In this document: positions 5,692 through 53,637 of the stretch, piece by piece
Numbering within the stretch: position 1 is the stretch's first letter
Layout: every line of letters begins with the position of its first letter
Sequence record: MT682709.1
Reading direction: 5' to 3' (one strand)
Length of the DNA stretch: 64,000 nucleotides
Origin: Escherichia phage vB_EcoM_SP1
Program-made: the position numbers and the translations under genes
Notes under the pieces: generated by a model
The model's input: the letters and a program-made list of their open reading frames with translations, nothing else
What the model was told of the DNA's origin: nothing
Databases searched by the model: none

Positions 5692-6183
5692 TTATTCCCA
5701 ATAATCGAGAGCGAGAGTTACTTCAAAGGTTTGGATTTCATTGTTTGAATCCCAATCTAACTGAAGTTCACCCACGTTAGTAGGCCACAGGCCTTTAATT
5801 TCGACTTCTTTTGTTACAGTTTTAGCGTCACGAGCATATTGGCGTACAATAGCACTCTTTTTATACTCTGCTGGTTTTCCACCAGTAATTTCGTTTCCTT
5901 GCCCAGCAGCAATGCTTTGCCAGTCAACAAACTTCTGGCGTGCATCATGCGCCTCATCATTCATTACTGTAATAGTCCAGTCATCGAATGTACGATCGCC
6001 TGCTACGTTAATTTTACGGTTCATAAATCCGACTGGAATTTTTTCTACAATACCAGCTGGTAAAGCAGTGGCTTTACATTGAAACGTAAAATTTTGTCCA
6101 AGATAAGAAATTTCTACTTGGAATAAGTTAGGTCGAGCAAAATCACCAGATTCAAACGCTCGTGTTACATCATCTACAAACAT
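5692..6183 (-). CDS. 19: tail tube protein gp19
   Basis: 163 aa, T4 gp19 size and position. Confidence 0.9.
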   Translation of the reverse strand: MFVDDVTRAFESGDFARPNLFQVEISYLGQNFTFQCKATALPAGIVEKIPVGFMNRKINVAGDRTFDDWTITVMNDEAHDARQKFVDWQSIAAGQGNEITGGKPAEYKKSAIVRQYARDAKTVTKEVEIKGLWPTNVGELQLDWDSNNEIQTFEVTLALDYWE

Positions 6184-6197
6184 ATTAGCCTCTGTAG

Positions 6198-6205
6198 TAT
6201 TTATA
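6198..6205 (-). promoter_or_regulatory. late promoter TATAAATA for gene 19
   Basis: tatttata on + strand 15 nt upstream of the gp19 ATG. Confidence 0.55.
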
Positions 6206-6256
6206 TCCCTATGTTTAACCTAGGGCATATAGAATTAAAGAATTAAGGATATAGTG

Positions 6257-6264
6257 TATTTATA
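6257..6264 (-). promoter_or_regulatory. second late promoter TATAAATA upstream of gene 19
   Basis: tatttata on + strand next to the gp18 hairpin. Confidence 0.5.
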
Positions 6265-6265
6265 T

Positions 6266-6283
6266 GGCCTGCCGAAACAGGCC
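6266..6283 (-). terminator. stem-loop downstream of gene 18
   Basis: GGCCTG-ccgaaa-CAGGCC hairpin; no clear T-run. Confidence 0.4.
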
Positions 6284-6299
6284 TTTAGAATGCACCGTA

Positions 6300-8279
6300 T
6301 TAACCTGCAAGACCAGTTAACTCATCGAAATCTGCACCAGTAGCAGTTGCTACGAAGTTCAAGGTAATGTAGTTAATGCTTCTAGCCGGTTGGATGTAGA
6401 ATGTTGCAACAAACTCATTTCTATCAATTACTGACGGAGTGTTATTTGTTGTATCGCAAACTACACGATATTCATAAATTCCACCGAGAGCTTTAATTCC
6501 CTGTAAGTATTGGGCAGTTTCTGTGCGGAATGATGAACGAGTAAACGCGTTGTTTAATTCGAACAAACGATATTTTGAACTACGTCCGATATTCGTTTTC
6601 AACATATTAAACAGACGACGAACGTTAATACGATCAAATGGAGAAGGAACAGAAGTAGCTGTTTTATCACCATATAATACGTAACCATCACCACCTGTAC
6701 CAGTTACTGGATTGATAGCTTCTTGGTATAAACGGTCGCGCTGAGCTTGGCGAGTTTCAATAGCAAGTTTAATAACGTTAAGAATCTGGCCGCGATTATA
6801 ACCAGCTGGAGACATCCAAGTCTGAGAAACGTTATCGGTTCTTGCACATAAACCGGCAATATCAGCTGCTAATGGAACCCAACGATTTACATCATTATAT
6901 TTGTCATACTGATATTTGTAGTTACCATCAATTGCTGCGTAGGTTGAACTGATATTAAAGTTATTATCAGTGTATGAACCCGTTGCAGTTCTCCAATTGA
7001 CTAAGTTATCGACAGCACGAGTTACAGGAATTCCAACTACAGTTTCACGCGGTGGTGAGCACAATACTAAGCAATCTTGGCGAGCATCCCCAATTGAAAC
7101 GACGTGTTTTTGGACAGTAGATGCTGTTTCTAAAGATTCACCGGCACAAGAACCCGCAATAAACAACTGAACGTCAACAGATTCACGGTCAGCAAAGAAG
7201 TCCCAGGCTTCCATCAAATCTCCTGCTGTTACTTCAGCATTTGATGATAATCCACCAGACAGAGTTAAAATTCCAGAGAAGCCTTCTGGCCAGTTTTGCG
7301 CAGTTGCAAAAATATATTCTGAACCACCTTTTGCGAAAAAGTCATCAATATAGATGTTGCTATCGTAAATATCTTTTTCACCACGCTTTGTTGAAAGAAC
7401 AACACTTTGAACAATAGCATCATTACGACGAACTATAATAGCGTATTGTGAATCAGTTTGTGGTCCATATCCAAACACTGCTTTGGCAGTAGATGCGCGT
7501 GTTCCGCCACCTGGATAAATTGGGAGTAATGCAGAAGCTCCTTTTGCGTAGTCAGCTTTAGATACAATTTCGATTTCAATTTTATCGCCTAACTCGCCTG
7601 GATAAAGAGCTACTACTCCTGGAATTCCATATTTTTCGAGATTTGCTTGAAATTCAACCGCTGTCACAGCAGCTTCAGCATTTTCAATTTCAGCTAATAA
7701 AATACCGGAATCAGTAATAATTTTTCCAAGAGTTATTACTGCAGCTAAACCAGAGGAAGACGAAGAAATTTCCGCGGTCCAGTTAGAACCTAATGCTGGA
7801 TATTCACCGACTTCTTTCGCTTTAGCGATAATTTTTGCGGTAGGAATATTAATTTTCTTAATTTTTCCATCAGCATCTACTTCGGTAATTTTACCCTCTG
7901 TTTCAACATTTTCTGAAACATACTTAACCGTGATTTTATCTCCAACCGCGTAGTTACTACCTGGGGCTGAAATAGTGTATTCAATATTACCAGCAATCGG
8001 AGATGAGTTTTTAGCGGTATCTCTATCGACAGCACGCACAACTCGCAAATCATTTCCATATTGTAAGAAATTCATTGCAGACATAAAATAATCAGCAGTT
8101 TCAGCTGTAGGTTGACCAAAAGTATTAACTAAATCTACTTCATTTGTAACCTGTTTAATCTGAAAAGCAGGACCCCACTGGAATTTACCGGCCAAAGCTG
8201 CTGTACCAGTAGAGTTATTAACCACGGTGCTTTGAACCGTAGTTTCTTTGAGCTCAATGCCCGGAGATAATAAAGTCAT
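6300..8279 (-). CDS. 18: tail sheath protein gp18
   Basis: 659 aa, T4 gp18 size and position. Confidence 0.93.
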   Translation of the reverse strand: MTLLSPGIELKETTVQSTVVNNSTGTAALAGKFQWGPAFQIKQVTNEVDLVNTFGQPTAETADYFMSAMNFLQYGNDLRVVRAVDRDTAKNSSPIAGNIEYTISAPGSNYAVGDKITVKYVSENVETEGKITEVDADGKIKKINIPTAKIIAKAKEVGEYPALGSNWTAEISSSSSGLAAVITLGKIITDSGILLAEIENAEAAVTAVEFQANLEKYGIPGVVALYPGELGDKIEIEIVSKADYAKGASALLPIYPGGGTRASTAKAVFGYGPQTDSQYAIIVRRNDAIVQSVVLSTKRGEKDIYDSNIYIDDFFAKGGSEYIFATAQNWPEGFSGILTLSGGLSSNAEVTAGDLMEAWDFFADRESVDVQLFIAGSCAGESLETASTVQKHVVSIGDARQDCLVLCSPPRETVVGIPVTRAVDNLVNWRTATGSYTDNNFNISSTYAAIDGNYKYQYDKYNDVNRWVPLAADIAGLCARTDNVSQTWMSPAGYNRGQILNVIKLAIETRQAQRDRLYQEAINPVTGTGGDGYVLYGDKTATSVPSPFDRINVRRLFNMLKTNIGRSSKYRLFELNNAFTRSSFRTETAQYLQGIKALGGIYEYRVVCDTTNNTPSVIDRNEFVATFYIQPARSINYITLNFVATATGADFDELTGLAG

Positions 8280-8307
8280 TTTTAATCCTCTTTAATATGC
8301 TTTAATA

Positions 8308-11448
<3,141 letters not shown>

Positions 11449-33622: not shown

Positions 33623-33695
33623 TGGGAATTAGCCAAGTTGGTAAGGCACTGGATTTTGATTCCAGGATGCAAAGGTTCGAGTCCTTTATTCCCAG
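33623..33695 (+). tRNA. tRNA-Gln (anticodon TTG)
   Basis: Cloverleaf read by hand: acceptor TGGGAAT/ATTCCCA, anticodon loop TTTTGAT. Confidence 0.85.
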
Positions 33696-33696
33696 C

Positions 33697-33783
33697 GCGA
33701 GAATGGTCAAATTGGTAAAGGCACAGCACTTAAAATGCTGCGGAATGATTTCCTTGTGGGTTCGAGTCCCACTTCTCGCACCA
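33697..33783 (+). tRNA. tRNA-Leu (anticodon TAA), CCA encoded
   Basis: Acceptor GCGAGAA/TTCTCGC, anticodon loop CTTAAAA, long variable arm. Confidence 0.85.
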
Positions 33784-33788
33784 AATTT

Positions 33789-33862
<74 letters not shown>

Positions 33863-33872
33863 ATTTAATTTA

Positions 33873-33946
33873 CTCCGTGTAGCTCAGTTTGGTAGAGCGC
33901 CTGATTTGGGATCAGGAGGTCCAAGGTTCAAATCCTTGTATGGAGA
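33873..33946 (+). tRNA. tRNA-Pro (anticodon TGG)
   Basis: Anticodon loop TTTGGGA, T-arm GGTTCAAATCC. Confidence 0.85.
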
Positions 33947-33948
33947 CT

Positions 33949-34038
33949 GGAGGCGTGGCAGAGTGGTTTAATGCACCGGTCTTGAAAACCGGCAGTCGCT
34001 CCGGCGACTCATAGGTTCAAATCCTATCGCCTCCGCCA
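33949..34038 (+). tRNA. tRNA-Ser (anticodon TGA)
   Basis: Acceptor GGAGGCG/CGCCTCC, anticodon loop CTTGAAA, long variable arm. Confidence 0.85.
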
Positions 34039-34043
34039 GTTTT

Positions 34044-34119
34044 GTTGATTTAGCTCAGTAGGTAGAGCACCTCACTTGTAATGAGGACGTCGGCGGTTCG
34101 ATTCCGTCAATCAGCACCA
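34044..34119 (+). tRNA. tRNA-Thr (anticodon TGT)
   Basis: Acceptor GTTGATT/AATCAGC, anticodon loop CTTGTAA. Confidence 0.85.
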
Positions 34120-34120
34120 A

Positions 34121-34195
34121 GGCCCTGTAGCTGGAAGGTTCAAGCAAGCGACTCATAATCGCCAGATGGTGGTTCAATTCCACCCAGGGCCACCA
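34121..34195 (+). tRNA. tRNA-Ile (anticodon CAT, T4-type) or Met
   Basis: Acceptor GGCCCTG/CAGGGCC, anticodon loop CTCATAA. Confidence 0.75.
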
Positions 34196-34204
34196 AATTA
34201 ATTT

Positions 34205-34291
34205 GGGGAGTTATCCCGTAGAGGTAGCGGTGTGGACTGTAAATCCATTGTCATTGCGACTCGGGTGGTTCGACTCCATCACTCCCCACCA
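34205..34291 (+). tRNA. tRNA-Tyr (anticodon GTA), type II
   Basis: Acceptor GGGGAGT/ACTCCCC, anticodon loop CTGTAAA, long variable arm. Confidence 0.7.
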
Positions 34292-34295
34292 ATTT

Positions 34296-34370
34296 GGATG
34301 TGTAGCTCAATGGCAGAGCGATCGCCTGTTAAGCGATTGGTTATAGGTTCGAATCCTATCACGTCCGCCA
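34296..34370 (+). tRNA. tRNA-Asn (anticodon GTT)
   Basis: Acceptor GGATGTG/CACGTCC, anticodon loop CTGTTAA. Confidence 0.75.
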
Positions 34371-34374
34371 AATC

Positions 34375-34450
34375 CGAGGCATAGCTCAGAAGGAAGAGCA
34401 AGGACCTTCTAAGTCCTAGGTCGTAGGTTCGATCCCTACTGCCTCGACCA
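34375..34450 (+). tRNA. tRNA-Arg (anticodon TCT)
   Basis: Acceptor CGAGGCA/TGCCTCG, anticodon loop CTTCTAA. Confidence 0.75.
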
Positions 34451-49570: not shown

Positions 49571-50116
49571 ATGACGGTAGCGGCGAAACGATTAGTATTA
49601 GAAGTTAGTTCACTTTTTGGTGAATTGGCTATAGAAAAAGTAAATAATGTGTATCGTTTGACACAAGAAGACGATATGCTGTATTTTACGCCTAGTGAAA
49701 TCATTCATTTAACCAAAATTGAAAATCCTTATACTGATAAAATTGTAAGCATTAATGATGAGCATAAAATTCATTTTTATTCTTCATGCCCAGGATTTAA
49801 TATTGAAAGCGAGTCAATATGCTTATCAATTAATAATTGGGATAATTTTATAACTAACATTAAATATTTTTATGATTCTACTAAAAGAAAACATAATTTA
49901 AAATGGTTTAAAAAATGTAATGCTATTATTACTAACTCCTGTAATCAGAATGATGAAACTATTTTAAATGTTTCAAAATGCTATGAAGAGGGAGATGTAG
50001 TATCTATTCGTCAAATTGACGATTTTCGATCACATATCATTACATTAAACAAAGACGAAGCTATTGCGCTAAAGACTTATCTTGATTCTGTTATTCCAAC
50101 TATGATTTCAAAGTGA
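49571..50116 (+). CDS. hypothetical protein (paralog pair, member 1)
   Basis: 181 aa; shares GFNIE(S/D)E and SIRQ...(A/E)(I/A)..K(T/Y)L..V.P(T/S)M with the 50123 ORF. Confidence 0.55.
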   Translation: MTVAAKRLVLEVSSLFGELAIEKVNNVYRLTQEDDMLYFTPSEIIHLTKIENPYTDKIVSINDEHKIHFYSSCPGFNIESESICLSINNWDNFITNIKYFYDSTKRKHNLKWFKKCNAIITNSCNQNDETILNVSKCYEEGDVVSIRQIDDFRSHIITLNKDEAIALKTYLDSVIPTMISK

Positions 50117-50122
50117 GGAAAT

Positions 50123-50644
50123 ATGTTTATTTCAAGTGGAAGTGGTTTAATTCGTGTTGAATTTAAAAATGACATCTTCCTTATTCAAGGAGATGATATT
50201 ATTAAAATGAGTTATGACGAAATCAAGAAAATTTGTCATGCTCTTGAAATCCGTGGAAAAGTAAATGCTACTATCGATATAGGTGATTTATGGGTGACAC
50301 TTTATGAAGTATCCGAAGGATTTAACATTGAAGATGAAAACAACATCTTAGCTATTGATAAAAGAAGTGATTTGTTTGATGTGTTAAAAGTTTATGAACA
50401 GTCAAACGGTGGAAGAAAAGCTGCATTGATTTATCAAAAACCACATTCATGTGGAACTGCTTCAATCGTTTCAAATATTGAAGATGAAACTGATACTTAT
50501 ATGTGTGTTTTAAAAGCTGGTGGTGACCGTCATCCGGATTTTATTTCTATTCGTCAAAACAATGGAGAAATTTCATTATCAAAATCAGAAGCTGAAGCTA
50601 TGATTAAGTATTTAACAACTGTTACACCTTCAATGAAAGGATAA
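50123..50644 (+). CDS. hypothetical protein (paralog pair, member 2)
   Basis: 173 aa; paralog of the 49571 ORF. Confidence 0.55.
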   Translation: MFISSGSGLIRVEFKNDIFLIQGDDIIKMSYDEIKKICHALEIRGKVNATIDIGDLWVTLYEVSEGFNIEDENNILAIDKRSDLFDVLKVYEQSNGGRKAALIYQKPHSCGTASIVSNIEDETDTYMCVLKAGGDRHPDFISIRQNNGEISLSKSEAEAMIKYLTTVTPSMKG

Positions 50645-50646
50645 TT

Positions 50647-51108
50647 ATGATTATTAATGAAAGCTCTTGGCATTATAAATTATTCAAAATGTTTAACGAC
50701 GAATGGAAACGACCTAAGACACTGTGTGCATACTTTTGGTCTATTGTTATTCCTACATTTTTCGTTTCTTTTTTCGGATGTACTATACTCGCAGGTCTAA
50801 CTATCATCTGTGCAGAAATCATGCAGAAATGGCTTATTTTTGGTAGTTTATGGACTCTTATTCCATCAGCATTTATACTTGCCATTTTGCTTGTTTTACT
50901 TATTATTGGTTCATTTGTTATTCCTGCACAACTGCGTGAAAAATATAAAGATTATAAATGGAAAAAGGATTATGCTTTACATGTAGAAAATATTGATAGG
51001 GCGTATAAAGGTTTACCTCCTATTCAACCAAAGAAATCTATTATCGTCGAATTTTTAAAAGCGCGTAAAGCTAAAGTATGTCCTGTTATTGAATATAAGG
51101 CTAAATGA
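50647..51108 (+). CDS. integral membrane protein
   Basis: 153 aa, three predicted TM helices. Confidence 0.55.
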   Translation: MIINESSWHYKLFKMFNDEWKRPKTLCAYFWSIVIPTFFVSFFGCTILAGLTIICAEIMQKWLIFGSLWTLIPSAFILAILLVLLIIGSFVIPAQLREKYKDYKWKKDYALHVENIDRAYKGLPPIQPKKSIIVEFLKARKAKVCPVIEYKAK

Positions 51109-52118
51109 TGAAAACAATAATGAAAAGCTATTTTGGTAGTCATCTTTATGGAACTTCTACTCCAGAATCTGATGTAGATTTTAAAGAAATCTTTGTTCCT
51201 CCTGCTCGTGATATTCTTATCGGAAATGTTAAAGAGCATATGAGTAAAAACACTAACAACACATCATCTAAAAACACCAAAGATGATATTGACCATGAAC
51301 TATACAGTCTTAAATATTTCTTTAAATTAGCAGCAGATGGTGAAACTGTAGCATTGGATATGCTCCACACTCCACCTGAACTGGTAGTTAAATCTGATTT
51401 GCCTGATGTATGGAAGTTTATTCAAGACAATCGTTCACGGTTTTATACAACTAACATGAAATCCTATTTAGGATATGTTCGCAAGCAAGCTTCTAAATAT
51501 GGTGTTAAGGGTTCTCGTTTGGCCGCATTGCGTGATGTATTGAAAGCAGTTAATCAAATCCCTGATCAGTGGGTTGATTACCAAGAAGACGGTTCCATTA
51601 AGCAGCGTCGAACTAAAGTAGAAGATATTAAGCATCGTCTTCCAGAAAACGAGTTCTGTGAATGGGTATTCCATAATCATGAGAAAACAGGCCCGCAAAC
51701 GTTCTATACTGTGTTGGGTCGTAAATATCAGACAACACTTTCTCTTATTGAGCTTAAGCAGTCTTTGAATAAACTTGATGCTGAATACGGCGAACGTGCT
51801 CGTAAGGCTGAAGCGAATGAGGGTATTGACTGGAAAGCACTGAGCCATGCTTGTCGTGGTGGACTCCAACTATTGGAAATTTACAAAACTGGTGACTTGG
51901 TTTATCCACTCCAAGATGCTCCATTTATTCTCGATGTGAAGTTGGGTAAACATCCATTTAAAACGATCCAAGAGTTTTTGGAAGATGTGGTCGATCAAGT
52001 AGAAGCAGCATCCATTGAAGCTTCTAAGAACGGTATGCAGCAAAAAGTAGACATGGGTTTCTGGGATGACTTCCTTGAGAGGGTTTATCTTGAAAACCAC
52101 CGAAGTTATTATAAATAA
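51105..52118 (+). CDS. nucleotidyltransferase-fold protein (Pol-beta superfamily)
   Basis: N-terminal GSHLYGTSTPESDVDF matches the GS...[DE]h[DE]h NTase motif; 337 aa with helical C-terminal half. Confidence 0.55.
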   Translation: MMKTIMKSYFGSHLYGTSTPESDVDFKEIFVPPARDILIGNVKEHMSKNTNNTSSKNTKDDIDHELYSLKYFFKLAADGETVALDMLHTPPELVVKSDLPDVWKFIQDNRSRFYTTNMKSYLGYVRKQASKYGVKGSRLAALRDVLKAVNQIPDQWVDYQEDGSIKQRRTKVEDIKHRLPENEFCEWVFHNHEKTGPQTFYTVLGRKYQTTLSLIELKQSLNKLDAEYGERARKAEANEGIDWKALSHACRGGLQLLEIYKTGDLVYPLQDAPFILDVKLGKHPFKTIQEFLEDVVDQVEAASIEASKNGMQQKVDMGFWDDFLERVYLENHRSYYK

Positions 52119-52120
52119 AA

Positions 52121-52147
52121 AGGGAGCCTTCGGGCTCCCTTTTTATT
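52121..52147 (+). terminator. intrinsic terminator
   Basis: AGGGAGCC-ttcg-GGCTCCCT followed by TTTTATTT. Confidence 0.8.
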
Positions 52148-52168
52148 TCAAAATTTTTTCACAAAACG

Positions 52169-52198
52169 GTTTACAAGCATAAAGCTTTATGGTACTAT
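52169..52198 (+). promoter_or_regulatory. early promoter (GTTTAC ... TACTAT)
   Basis: 18-bp spacing; leader near-identical to the 35972 and 53608 promoters. Confidence 0.6.
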
Positions 52199-52232: not shown

Positions 52233-53201
52233 ATGAAAACTGTAACTATCAATAAGGGTATCTACTTCGGTAAAGAAATCTCTGGAACTTTTGAGCTCTT
52301 AGGCGAATGGTTCCCAGATAATGCTCCGGTAGATGCACAAGGAGATGGTAAAGTTTTTGTTGAAATTGACGGTAAACGTCGCGGTGTTTGGGTTTACAAA
52401 TCAGATATTTCATATGATGGTGTAAAAGTTGAAGAAGTTAAAGAATCATATGAAGATATGAAAATCCGCATTAATAAAAGATTTAATGTTATGGGAATGA
52501 TGACGAATGGTATTATTAATGGAAATATTCGTTCATTAATTATCTCTGGCGCAGCAGGTATTGGTAAAACGTATTCTTTAGATAAAGCTTTGAATAAAGC
52601 AAATGATATTGGATACATTGAATATAAAAGCATTAATGGTAAAATCTCTGGTATTGGTCTTTATGAGCAGCTTTGGAATAATCGTGAAGAGAATTCTGTC
52701 CTTTTGATTGATGATGTGGATGTTTTCTCTGATATGGACATTCTTAATCTTCTAAAAGCTGCTCTGGACACTGGAGAGACCCGTAAAGTCTGCTGGAGCA
52801 CTGCATCTTCTTACTTAGAAGAAAAAGGCATTGACCGTGAGTTTGAATTTAAAGGAACGATTGTTTTTATCACAAACGTTGACATTGACCGCGAATTAGA
52901 CCGTGGTACTAAACTTGCCCCACACTTACAAGCATTGGTGTCCCGCTCAGTTTATTTGGATTTGGGTGTTCACACTAATGAAGAAATTATGGTCAGGGTT
53001 GAAGATGTTATTCTTTCAACTGACATGATGCAAAAGCGCGGTCTTTCTGATGAAGAAACTTATAAAGCATTATCATGGATGAAAGTTAATGTTAATCGTT
53101 TACGCAATGTTTCACTGCGTACTGCTCTTTATCTTGCTGACTTTATTATGACCGACAAAAACGGTTGGGAAGAAATTGCTGAGGTTACTCTTCTGAAATA
53201 A
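52233..53201 (+). CDS. AAA+/P-loop ATPase
   Basis: Walker A SGAAGIGKT, Walker B VLLIDDVD; ATG 52233 after GGAG; the track's TTG start discarded. Confidence 0.6.
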   Translation: MKTVTINKGIYFGKEISGTFELLGEWFPDNAPVDAQGDGKVFVEIDGKRRGVWVYKSDISYDGVKVEEVKESYEDMKIRINKRFNVMGMMTNGIINGNIRSLIISGAAGIGKTYSLDKALNKANDIGYIEYKSINGKISGIGLYEQLWNNREENSVLLIDDVDVFSDMDILNLLKAALDTGETRKVCWSTASSYLEEKGIDREFEFKGTIVFITNVDIDRELDRGTKLAPHLQALVSRSVYLDLGVHTNEEIMVRVEDVILSTDMMQKRGLSDEETYKALSWMKVNVNRLRNVSLRTALYLADFIMTDKNGWEEIAEVTLLK

Positions 53202-53607: not shown

Positions 53608-53637
53608 GTTTACAAGACTGTTCCTCTGTGGTACTAT
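53608..53637 (+). promoter_or_regulatory. early promoter (GTTTAC ... TACTAT)
   Basis: 18-bp spacing. Confidence 0.6.

Follow-up and report, generated by a model that had tools for sequence, protein, structure and literature searches.

The T4-like phage protein NrdC.11 as a predicted long-subtype RlaP nucleotidyltransferase with a proposed role in RNA repair

The gene at positions 51105-52118 of the window (the 64,000-nucleotide stretch of Escherichia phage vB_EcoM_SP1, record MT682709.1, analyzed here) is the ortholog of T4 nrdC.11, and sequence comparison places its product in a distinct "long" subtype of the RlaP family of Pol-beta nucleotidyltransferases (NTases). Reasoning by analogy, we consider it probable (roughly 0.6) that NrdC.11 is an RNA 3'-end nucleotidyltransferase serving the Pnk/Rnl1 tRNA repair of T4. 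The argument builds on what was established here, namely orthology, family membership, intact catalytic residues, a predicted NTase fold, and RNA repair linkage in bacteria.

Background

The gene, its fold prediction, and its RlaP family assignment have all been published. In 2006 a match to COG3541 led to the prediction that NrdC.11 is an NTase (PMC1524935), and a December 2025 preprint assigned "T4NrdC.11" to cluster 5 of its RlaP similarity network, function unknown (PMC12776372). The RNA repair hypothesis has likewise been published, for phage RlaPs generally and for RlaPs as a family. The long subtype is what this analysis adds.

Carruthers, Fatma and Huang (PMC12776372) characterized the RlaPs of P. 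fluorescens and P. aeruginosa (PfRlaP and PaRlaP), which are encoded between rtcB and rtcA. Both enzymes favor Mn2+ and add one or two NMPs to RNA 3'-OH ends; any NTP serves as donor, as does dATP. DNA and protein are not acceptors, and E. coli proteins were not labeled. The preferred substrate is the 5' half of a nicked tRNA, with full-length tRNAs and single-stranded RNA 3'-OH ends also being labeled by these canonical RlaPs. When a tRNA was missing one nucleotide of the anticodon loop, the action of RlaP before ligation significantly raised aminoacylation. In the 2.1 Å structure, a helical domain accompanies the NTase domain, and three Asp residues are catalytic. RlaPs were proposed to counteract nucleases such as RloC, which remove a nucleotide once they have cut (PMC12776372), the same prediction having been made for phage RlaPs by Iyer et al. 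in 2021 (PMC7824862).

Identity and layout of the gene

The window is that of a Tequatrovirus, with 97.6% nucleotide identity to vB_EcoM_NBG2 over 3.5 kb and hundreds of similar records. The encoded protein is 97% identical over 336 aa to T4 NrdC.11 (NP_049709.1), which carries the RefSeq annotation "nucleotidyltransferase"; the question of a T4 counterpart, which a sequence-only reading of the window had left standing, is thereby answered. The two proteins have ten amino-acid differences, none of them at invariant positions. The gene order is also that of T4, running from rI.-1 through the mobD.x genes to nrdC.11, nrdC.10, nrdC.9 and onward. In both phages the gene lies between mobD.x/y05I-type genes and nrdC.10, and the strand and terminator context match. 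The difference lies directly upstream, where T4 has the homing-endonuclease gene mobD between MobD.1 and nrdC.11, whereas the window lacks mobD and has two y05I-like genes and a membrane-protein gene instead.

Many NrdC.11 orthologs are labeled "thioredoxin" in GenBank and UniRef. The label was apparently carried over from the gene name nrdC.x, making it a propagated annotation error, and the same applies to the label [quoted passage not shown] on a y05I-like MobD.x protein.

The ORF (51105-52118, + strand) encodes 337 aa from its first ATG and is real, as first read; given the 1574 phage records and 3447 family clusters described below, it is not a chance ORF. A second ATG at 51108 gives 336 aa and is the start annotated in T4. 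The Shine-Dalgarno-like AAGG that can be read at 51097-51100 (+ strand) precedes ATG 51105 by 4 nt and ATG 51108 by 7 nt, and this better spacing, together with the T4 annotation, makes ATG 51108 the likely true start. The ATGA overlap with an upstream membrane-protein gene was also correctly described: ATG 51105 overlaps the TGA of the ORF at 50647-51108, and the coupling is retained from either start (as TGATG if ATG 51108 is used). The product of this upstream ORF (+ strand, 153 aa) matches PHROG 944 "membrane protein", and two of its segments are strongly hydrophobic. Further upstream, two tandem paralogs (49571-50116 and 50123-50644) with the Pfam domains T4_y05I_N and T4_y05I_C encode putative transcription factors related to T4 MobD.1.

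The strong terminator claimed at the gene end is present as an intrinsic-terminator-like hairpin followed by a T-run (52113-52148, + strand; 16 pairs, 6 of them G-C; loop TTCG). The hairpin, whose core is GGGAGCC-TTCG-GGCTCCC, starts within the stop codon region of the nrdC.11 ortholog and is predicted to terminate the nrdC.11 transcription unit. The nrdC.10 ortholog that follows (52233-53201) has a Walker-A-like GAAGIGKT, Pfam matches to AAA/STAND families that are sub-threshold only, and a match to PHROG 1250 (function unknown). A promoter-like site of its own lies at 52170-52198 (TTTACA-17-TACTAT, with an extended TG), and a near-identical copy of this site occurs at 53609-53637.

The ATGA coupling with the membrane-protein gene is a local feature rather than a conserved partnership, because T4 has mobD in that place and distant T4-like phages have other neighbors. 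We rejected both this membrane protein and the nrdC.10 ATPase as functional partners of NrdC.11: T4 has mobD upstream, nrdC.10 lies beyond the terminator with its own promoter-like site, and adjacency to either gene is not kept in distant T4-like phages.

Membership in the RlaP family

The family was reportedly named RlaP by Burroughs and Aravind in 2016. Its name comes from an RNA-ligase neighborhood, which is not required of each member. The window protein scores 44.4 bits (cut-off 23; E 2.2e-11) on Pfam PF10127 (RlaP, RNA repair pathway DNA polymerase beta family), over residues 4-135 and about profile positions 20-144 of 249; PF10127 is also matched by 71 of 72 diverse relatives. A match to PHROG 388 "nucleotidyltransferase" has an E value of 1.5e-136. 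An exhaustive family search yielded 3447 clusters at 50% identity, nearly all of proteins of 310-350 aa that align end to end.

Canonical RlaPs (PF10127) share with the NrdC.11 type the Pol-beta NTase core with its GS, DxD and third Asp, the layout of an NTase domain plus a helical domain, and linkage to RNA ligase genes. They are shorter, at 250-275 aa; the NrdC.11 type is 60-80 aa longer and has a beta-rich insert of about 75 aa that is absent from the canonical type. In the similarity clusters of the preprint, the NrdC.11 type falls in cluster 5, whereas the characterized RlaPs fall in cluster 1a (PMC12776372). Comparison with canonical RlaP by hhalign covered residues 4-129 only (94% probability). 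With residues 138-211 deleted, the alignment reached K244-x6-R251, which paired with canonical K149-x6-R156 (95.6% probability), and the C-terminal half alone gave no significant profile similarity to canonical RlaP. By these measures, the NrdC.11-type proteins are a distinct long RlaP subtype. The most economical reading is that they would combine the scaffold of canonical RlaP, a beta-rich insert of about 75 aa, and a helical domain that has diverged.

Salmonella jumbo phage SE_PL encodes a 413-aa NTase, gp248 (5974-7215 of locus L088), that matches PF10127 only at positions 26-144, the N-terminal half. Its length is unlike that of the long and canonical types, and it may represent a third RlaP subtype.

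Catalytic residues and predicted fold

Residues 10-26, FGSHLYGTSTPESDVDF, contain the two elements of the Pol-beta motif to which the protein had been fitted, hG[GS] (F10-G11-S12; 51132-51140, + strand) and [DE]h[DE]h (D23-V24-D25-F26). The fit holds, with the correction that the motif begins at residue 10-11 rather than at the N-terminus itself. Among 72 diverse relatives (35-54% identity), the invariant residues are G11, S12, S22, D23, D25, N57, D63, Y132, K244, R251 and K279, and a second alignment of 85 sequences gave the same invariant core. The element D23-V24-D25 (51171-51179, + strand) aligns with the canonical RlaP DxD and is predicted to bind metal. In D61-I62-D63 (51285-51293, + strand), D61 is at least 90% conserved, and the invariant D63, at the start of model strand 62-68, aligns with the invariant third Asp of canonical RlaPs. 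D63 is thus predicted to be the third catalytic carboxylate, the residue for which the sequence-only reading had advised a check. Farther along, the motif K244-x6-R251 (DWKALSHACR; 51834-51857, + strand), in which D242, W243 and H248 are at least 90% conserved, may contact phosphates of the NTP or the RNA. Judged from its invariant Pol-beta residues, the NrdC.11 family is catalytically intact.

An AlphaFold2 model made from the 85-sequence alignment (mean pLDDT 90.1, pTM 0.75) has an alpha/beta NTase core with strands at 3-10, 24-31, 45-49 and 62-68 and helices as far as residue 150; residues 155-209 form a five-stranded beta-rich module, and residues 214-336 a helical C-terminal domain. [quoted passage not shown] The helical domain expected after the core is present at the C-terminus, although the region is not purely helical, there being five strands in residues 155-209.

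The best PDB structure matches of the model are Pol-beta NTases, which together with the PF10127 score and the invariant catalytic residues supports the predicted Pol-beta fold. BFVD models of canonical phage RlaPs also match the NrdC.11 model, with fold-level matches that span the whole target. A PDB sequence search, with the single protein and with a profile of 72 sequences, found no real relative. Hailong HalB (PDB 9dbh, 9dbj) and the NTase-like 3c18 matched over 116-147 residues at 12-15% identity and a global TM of 0.24-0.27, and they differ from NrdC.11 in domain content and biology. No cGAS, OAS or CD-NTase chains were among the PDB matches listed. Matches to four-helix bundles are non-specific at this Z level, with CheA P1 domains and designed proteins scoring equally.

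Gene neighborhoods of the long subtype

A scan of one genome per species gave 80 loci with full-length relatives (32-53% identity), many of them on megabase-size bacterial contigs. Neighboring ORFs were clustered, and the cluster representatives were checked against Pfam. The neighbors of the long type include RtcB in nine loci, bacterial Pnkp (with kinase, phosphatase and ligase domains) in six, Hen1 in five, and a Ro-like protein with TROVE and vWA domains in four; the bacterial relatives that adjoin RtcB, Pnkp/Hen1, Ro-like or HD genes have 32-42% identity. Some of the genes abut directly, as Hen1-Pnkp-RlaP (L056, L076, L082), RtcB-RlaP (L084) or Ro-RlaP (L018). Counting RtcB, Pnkp, Hen1, Ro-like and HD genes as RNA repair partners, one occurs within 8 kb in 18 of 84 loci, and in 13 of the 54 with at least 10 kb of flank. 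Because RNA repair genes are rare in genomes, we judge, as a rough estimate, that this linkage is probably far above chance.

The HD genes encode small phosphohydrolases and lie directly downstream of the long type in four loci, two of them non-T4 phage contigs and two bacterial (L006, L007, L019, L086). The paired genes, which span 8001-9445 in L006 and 8001-9325 in L007, often overlap. This pairing fits 3'-end healing followed by nucleotide addition and, by analogy, would recall the layout of class II CCA-adding enzymes, which have an NTase-plus-HD architecture.

In 18 of the 68 loci whose downstream sequence is long enough, the gene directly after the long one is a full-length canonical PF10127 gene, and the two often share an ATGA overlap (L012, L014, L023, L027, L032, L035, L039, L043, L056, L059, L060, L067, L074, L079, L080, L083, L084, L085). 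The canonical partners match profile positions 1-248 with E values of 1e-51 to 1e-81, and in most of the paired loci the long gene is near 8001-8990. One of the pairs forms part of an Asticcacaulis operon, Hen1-Pnkp-RlaP-RlaP (L056). An apparent 601-aa fusion of the long and canonical types in L085 was rejected as an artefact of ORF calling in DNA of 69% G+C; two genes with an ATGA overlap are present there. The pairing of long and canonical types, which we did not find mentioned in the RlaP preprint (PMC12776372), suggests a two-NTase module.

Distribution in phages

Most of the 1574 phage records in which tblastn detected the gene are Straboviridae infecting Escherichia, Klebsiella, Shigella, Aeromonas, Acinetobacter and Vibrio. 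Canonical RlaPs occur in 86 phage records, mostly of jumbo phages and none of them Straboviridae, and no canonical RlaP lies within the 64-kb window. Across phages of Aeromonas, Acinetobacter, Vibrio and Sinorhizobium, nrdC.11 has no conserved neighbor. No ligase or Pnk gene adjoins the ortholog at the locus studied here, and the T4 genes pseT (Pnk) and rnlA (Rnl1) lie about 80 kb from nrdC.11. Counted by genus across the phage collection, Pnk and Rnl1 occur in nearly the same numbers as NrdC.11; this co-distribution is consistent with a shared pathway, and, being confounded by common descent within the Straboviridae, is not independent evidence for it.

Proposed role in RNA repair

The sequence-only reading called the substrate of this protein unknown. 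That description is partly outdated, canonical RlaPs acting on RNA 3'-OH ends, and it is in part still true. Four elements of the proposal are inferred: that RNA is the substrate, how many nucleotides are added, that NrdC.11 cooperates with Pnk and Rnl1, and which host nuclease is countered. The proposed mechanism would run as follows. D23, D25 and D63 would hold two divalent metal ions, Mn2+ being favored by the characterized RlaPs, and NrdC.11, using NTPs and no template, would extend the 3'-OH end of a broken RNA by one or two NMPs. The most plausible acceptor would be the 5' half of a tRNA cleaved in the anticodon loop. Pnk would first strip the 3'-phosphate or 2',3'-cyclic phosphate, NrdC.11 would then restore the nucleotide excised by a host anticodon nuclease such as RloC, and the break would finally be closed by Rnl1, which requires 3'-OH and 5'-P ends. 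The model fits Rnl1 because the RlaP product and Pnk would supply its 3'-OH and 5'-P, an argument from ligase-end compatibility that was made in the preprint (PMC12776372). By the same logic, the linkage to Pnkp/Hen1, another 5'-P ligase system, would fit as well.

Several observations count against the repair model. The characterized enzymes fall in another cluster (1a), and their alignment with NrdC.11 is confined to residues 4-129; the C-terminal half of NrdC.11 has no significant profile similarity of its own, and there is an extra insert of about 75 aa. The occurrence of the long type beside a canonical RlaP in 18 of 68 bacterial loci argues for non-identical activities of the two. In T4-like phages, nrdC.11 is adjacent to neither pseT nor rnlA and keeps no conserved neighbor. 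In the laboratory, T4 tolerates deletion of the block from nrdC.11 to mobD.3 (PMC9825161), and the idea that RlaPs counter RloC is itself just a proposal in the literature.

The pairing with canonical RlaPs can tentatively be brought together with the repair model in a joint reading, which we regard as possible though doubtful: the long type would be the functionally distinct second enzyme of a two-NTase restoration module, and T4-like phages would have kept the long type alone for Pnk/Rnl1 repair. The two enzymes, translationally coupled in bacteria, might differ in the nucleotides they add or in the RNA ends they use, or they might form a complex, with the beta-rich insert setting the specificity of the long type. 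In T4, the long enzyme would rebuild anticodon loops with Pnk and Rnl1 after the action of excising nucleases such as RloC.

Alternative functions

NrdC.11 might act at the acceptor end of tRNAs instead, repairing or completing the CCA of host or phage tRNAs after damage or during maturation. The window contains ten phage tRNA genes at 33623-34450 (Gln, Leu, Gly, Pro, Ser, Thr, one with a CAU anticodon that is Met or Ile, Tyr, Asn and Arg), eight of which encode a CCA end; the Gln and Pro tRNAs lack an encoded CCA and run straight into the next tRNA. The labeling of full-length tRNAs and single-stranded RNA 3'-OH ends by canonical RlaPs (PMC12776372) also agrees with such a role, and the four RlaP-HD pairs echo class II CCA-adding enzymes. 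Against it, the characterized RlaPs show little NTP specificity, add only one or two nucleotides, and prefer the internal break of a nicked tRNA. The Pfam search of the protein gave no match to the head domain of CCA-adding/tRNA nucleotidyltransferases or poly(A) polymerases, the matches at E up to 0.1 being PF10127, a sub-threshold NTP_transf_2, and a sub-threshold DUF1409 (15.6 bits against a cut-off of 29.2). In addition, Deutscher, Foulds and McClain reportedly found in 1974 that the host CCA enzyme is required for some T4 tRNAs, which implies that T4 is without an adequate activity of its own. We consider an acceptor-end role unlikely.

Modification of a protein or small molecule, such as AMPylation of a host toxin in the manner of MNT/HEPN systems or an ANT-like modification of an antibiotic, appears improbable to us. 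ANT(4') kanamycin nucleotidyltransferase and the minimal NTases of MNT/HEPN type have no family-level sequence match to NrdC.11, and their substrates are small molecules or proteins, whereas that of RlaP is RNA. The MntA model NCBIfam NF047752 scores 13.2 bits against a cut-off of 60 and covers residues 9-26 only, there is no PADLOC match, and canonical RlaPs left E. coli proteins unlabeled. The neighbors of the subtype are RNA ligases and end-healing enzymes rather than toxins, and the four-helix-bundle structure matches, being non-specific, lend no weight to this function. Least probable is a role in nucleotide signaling, an option offered in the sequence-only reading. Here NrdC.11 would make or interfere with a second messenger or oligonucleotide signal in the manner of OAS, CD-NTases or HalB, which lacks support given that the resemblance to HalB does not go beyond the generic NTase core (147 residues at 14% identity), that Pfam and PADLOC gave no Mab-21, CD-NTase or OAS match and NCBIfam none of this kind, and that both RlaP family biochemistry and the gene neighborhoods of the relatives point to RNA ends and RNA repair.

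Implications

The Pnk/Rnl1 pathway of T4 is the founding example of RNA repair as counter-defense. RloC-type nucleases excise the wobble nucleotide after cutting, and simple ligation is expected not to restore tRNA function (PMC12776372, PMC7824862). If NrdC.11, as an RNA 3'-end nucleotidyltransferase, restores the missing nucleotide, it would be a third component of the T4 repair kit, and the model of this arms race would need to be updated. Should the joint reading with a two-NTase module be true, T4 would defeat an anticodon nuclease whose damage the literature deems beyond functional repair by ligation only. About 1500 sequenced T4-like phages carry the gene, and the question is accordingly a broad one.
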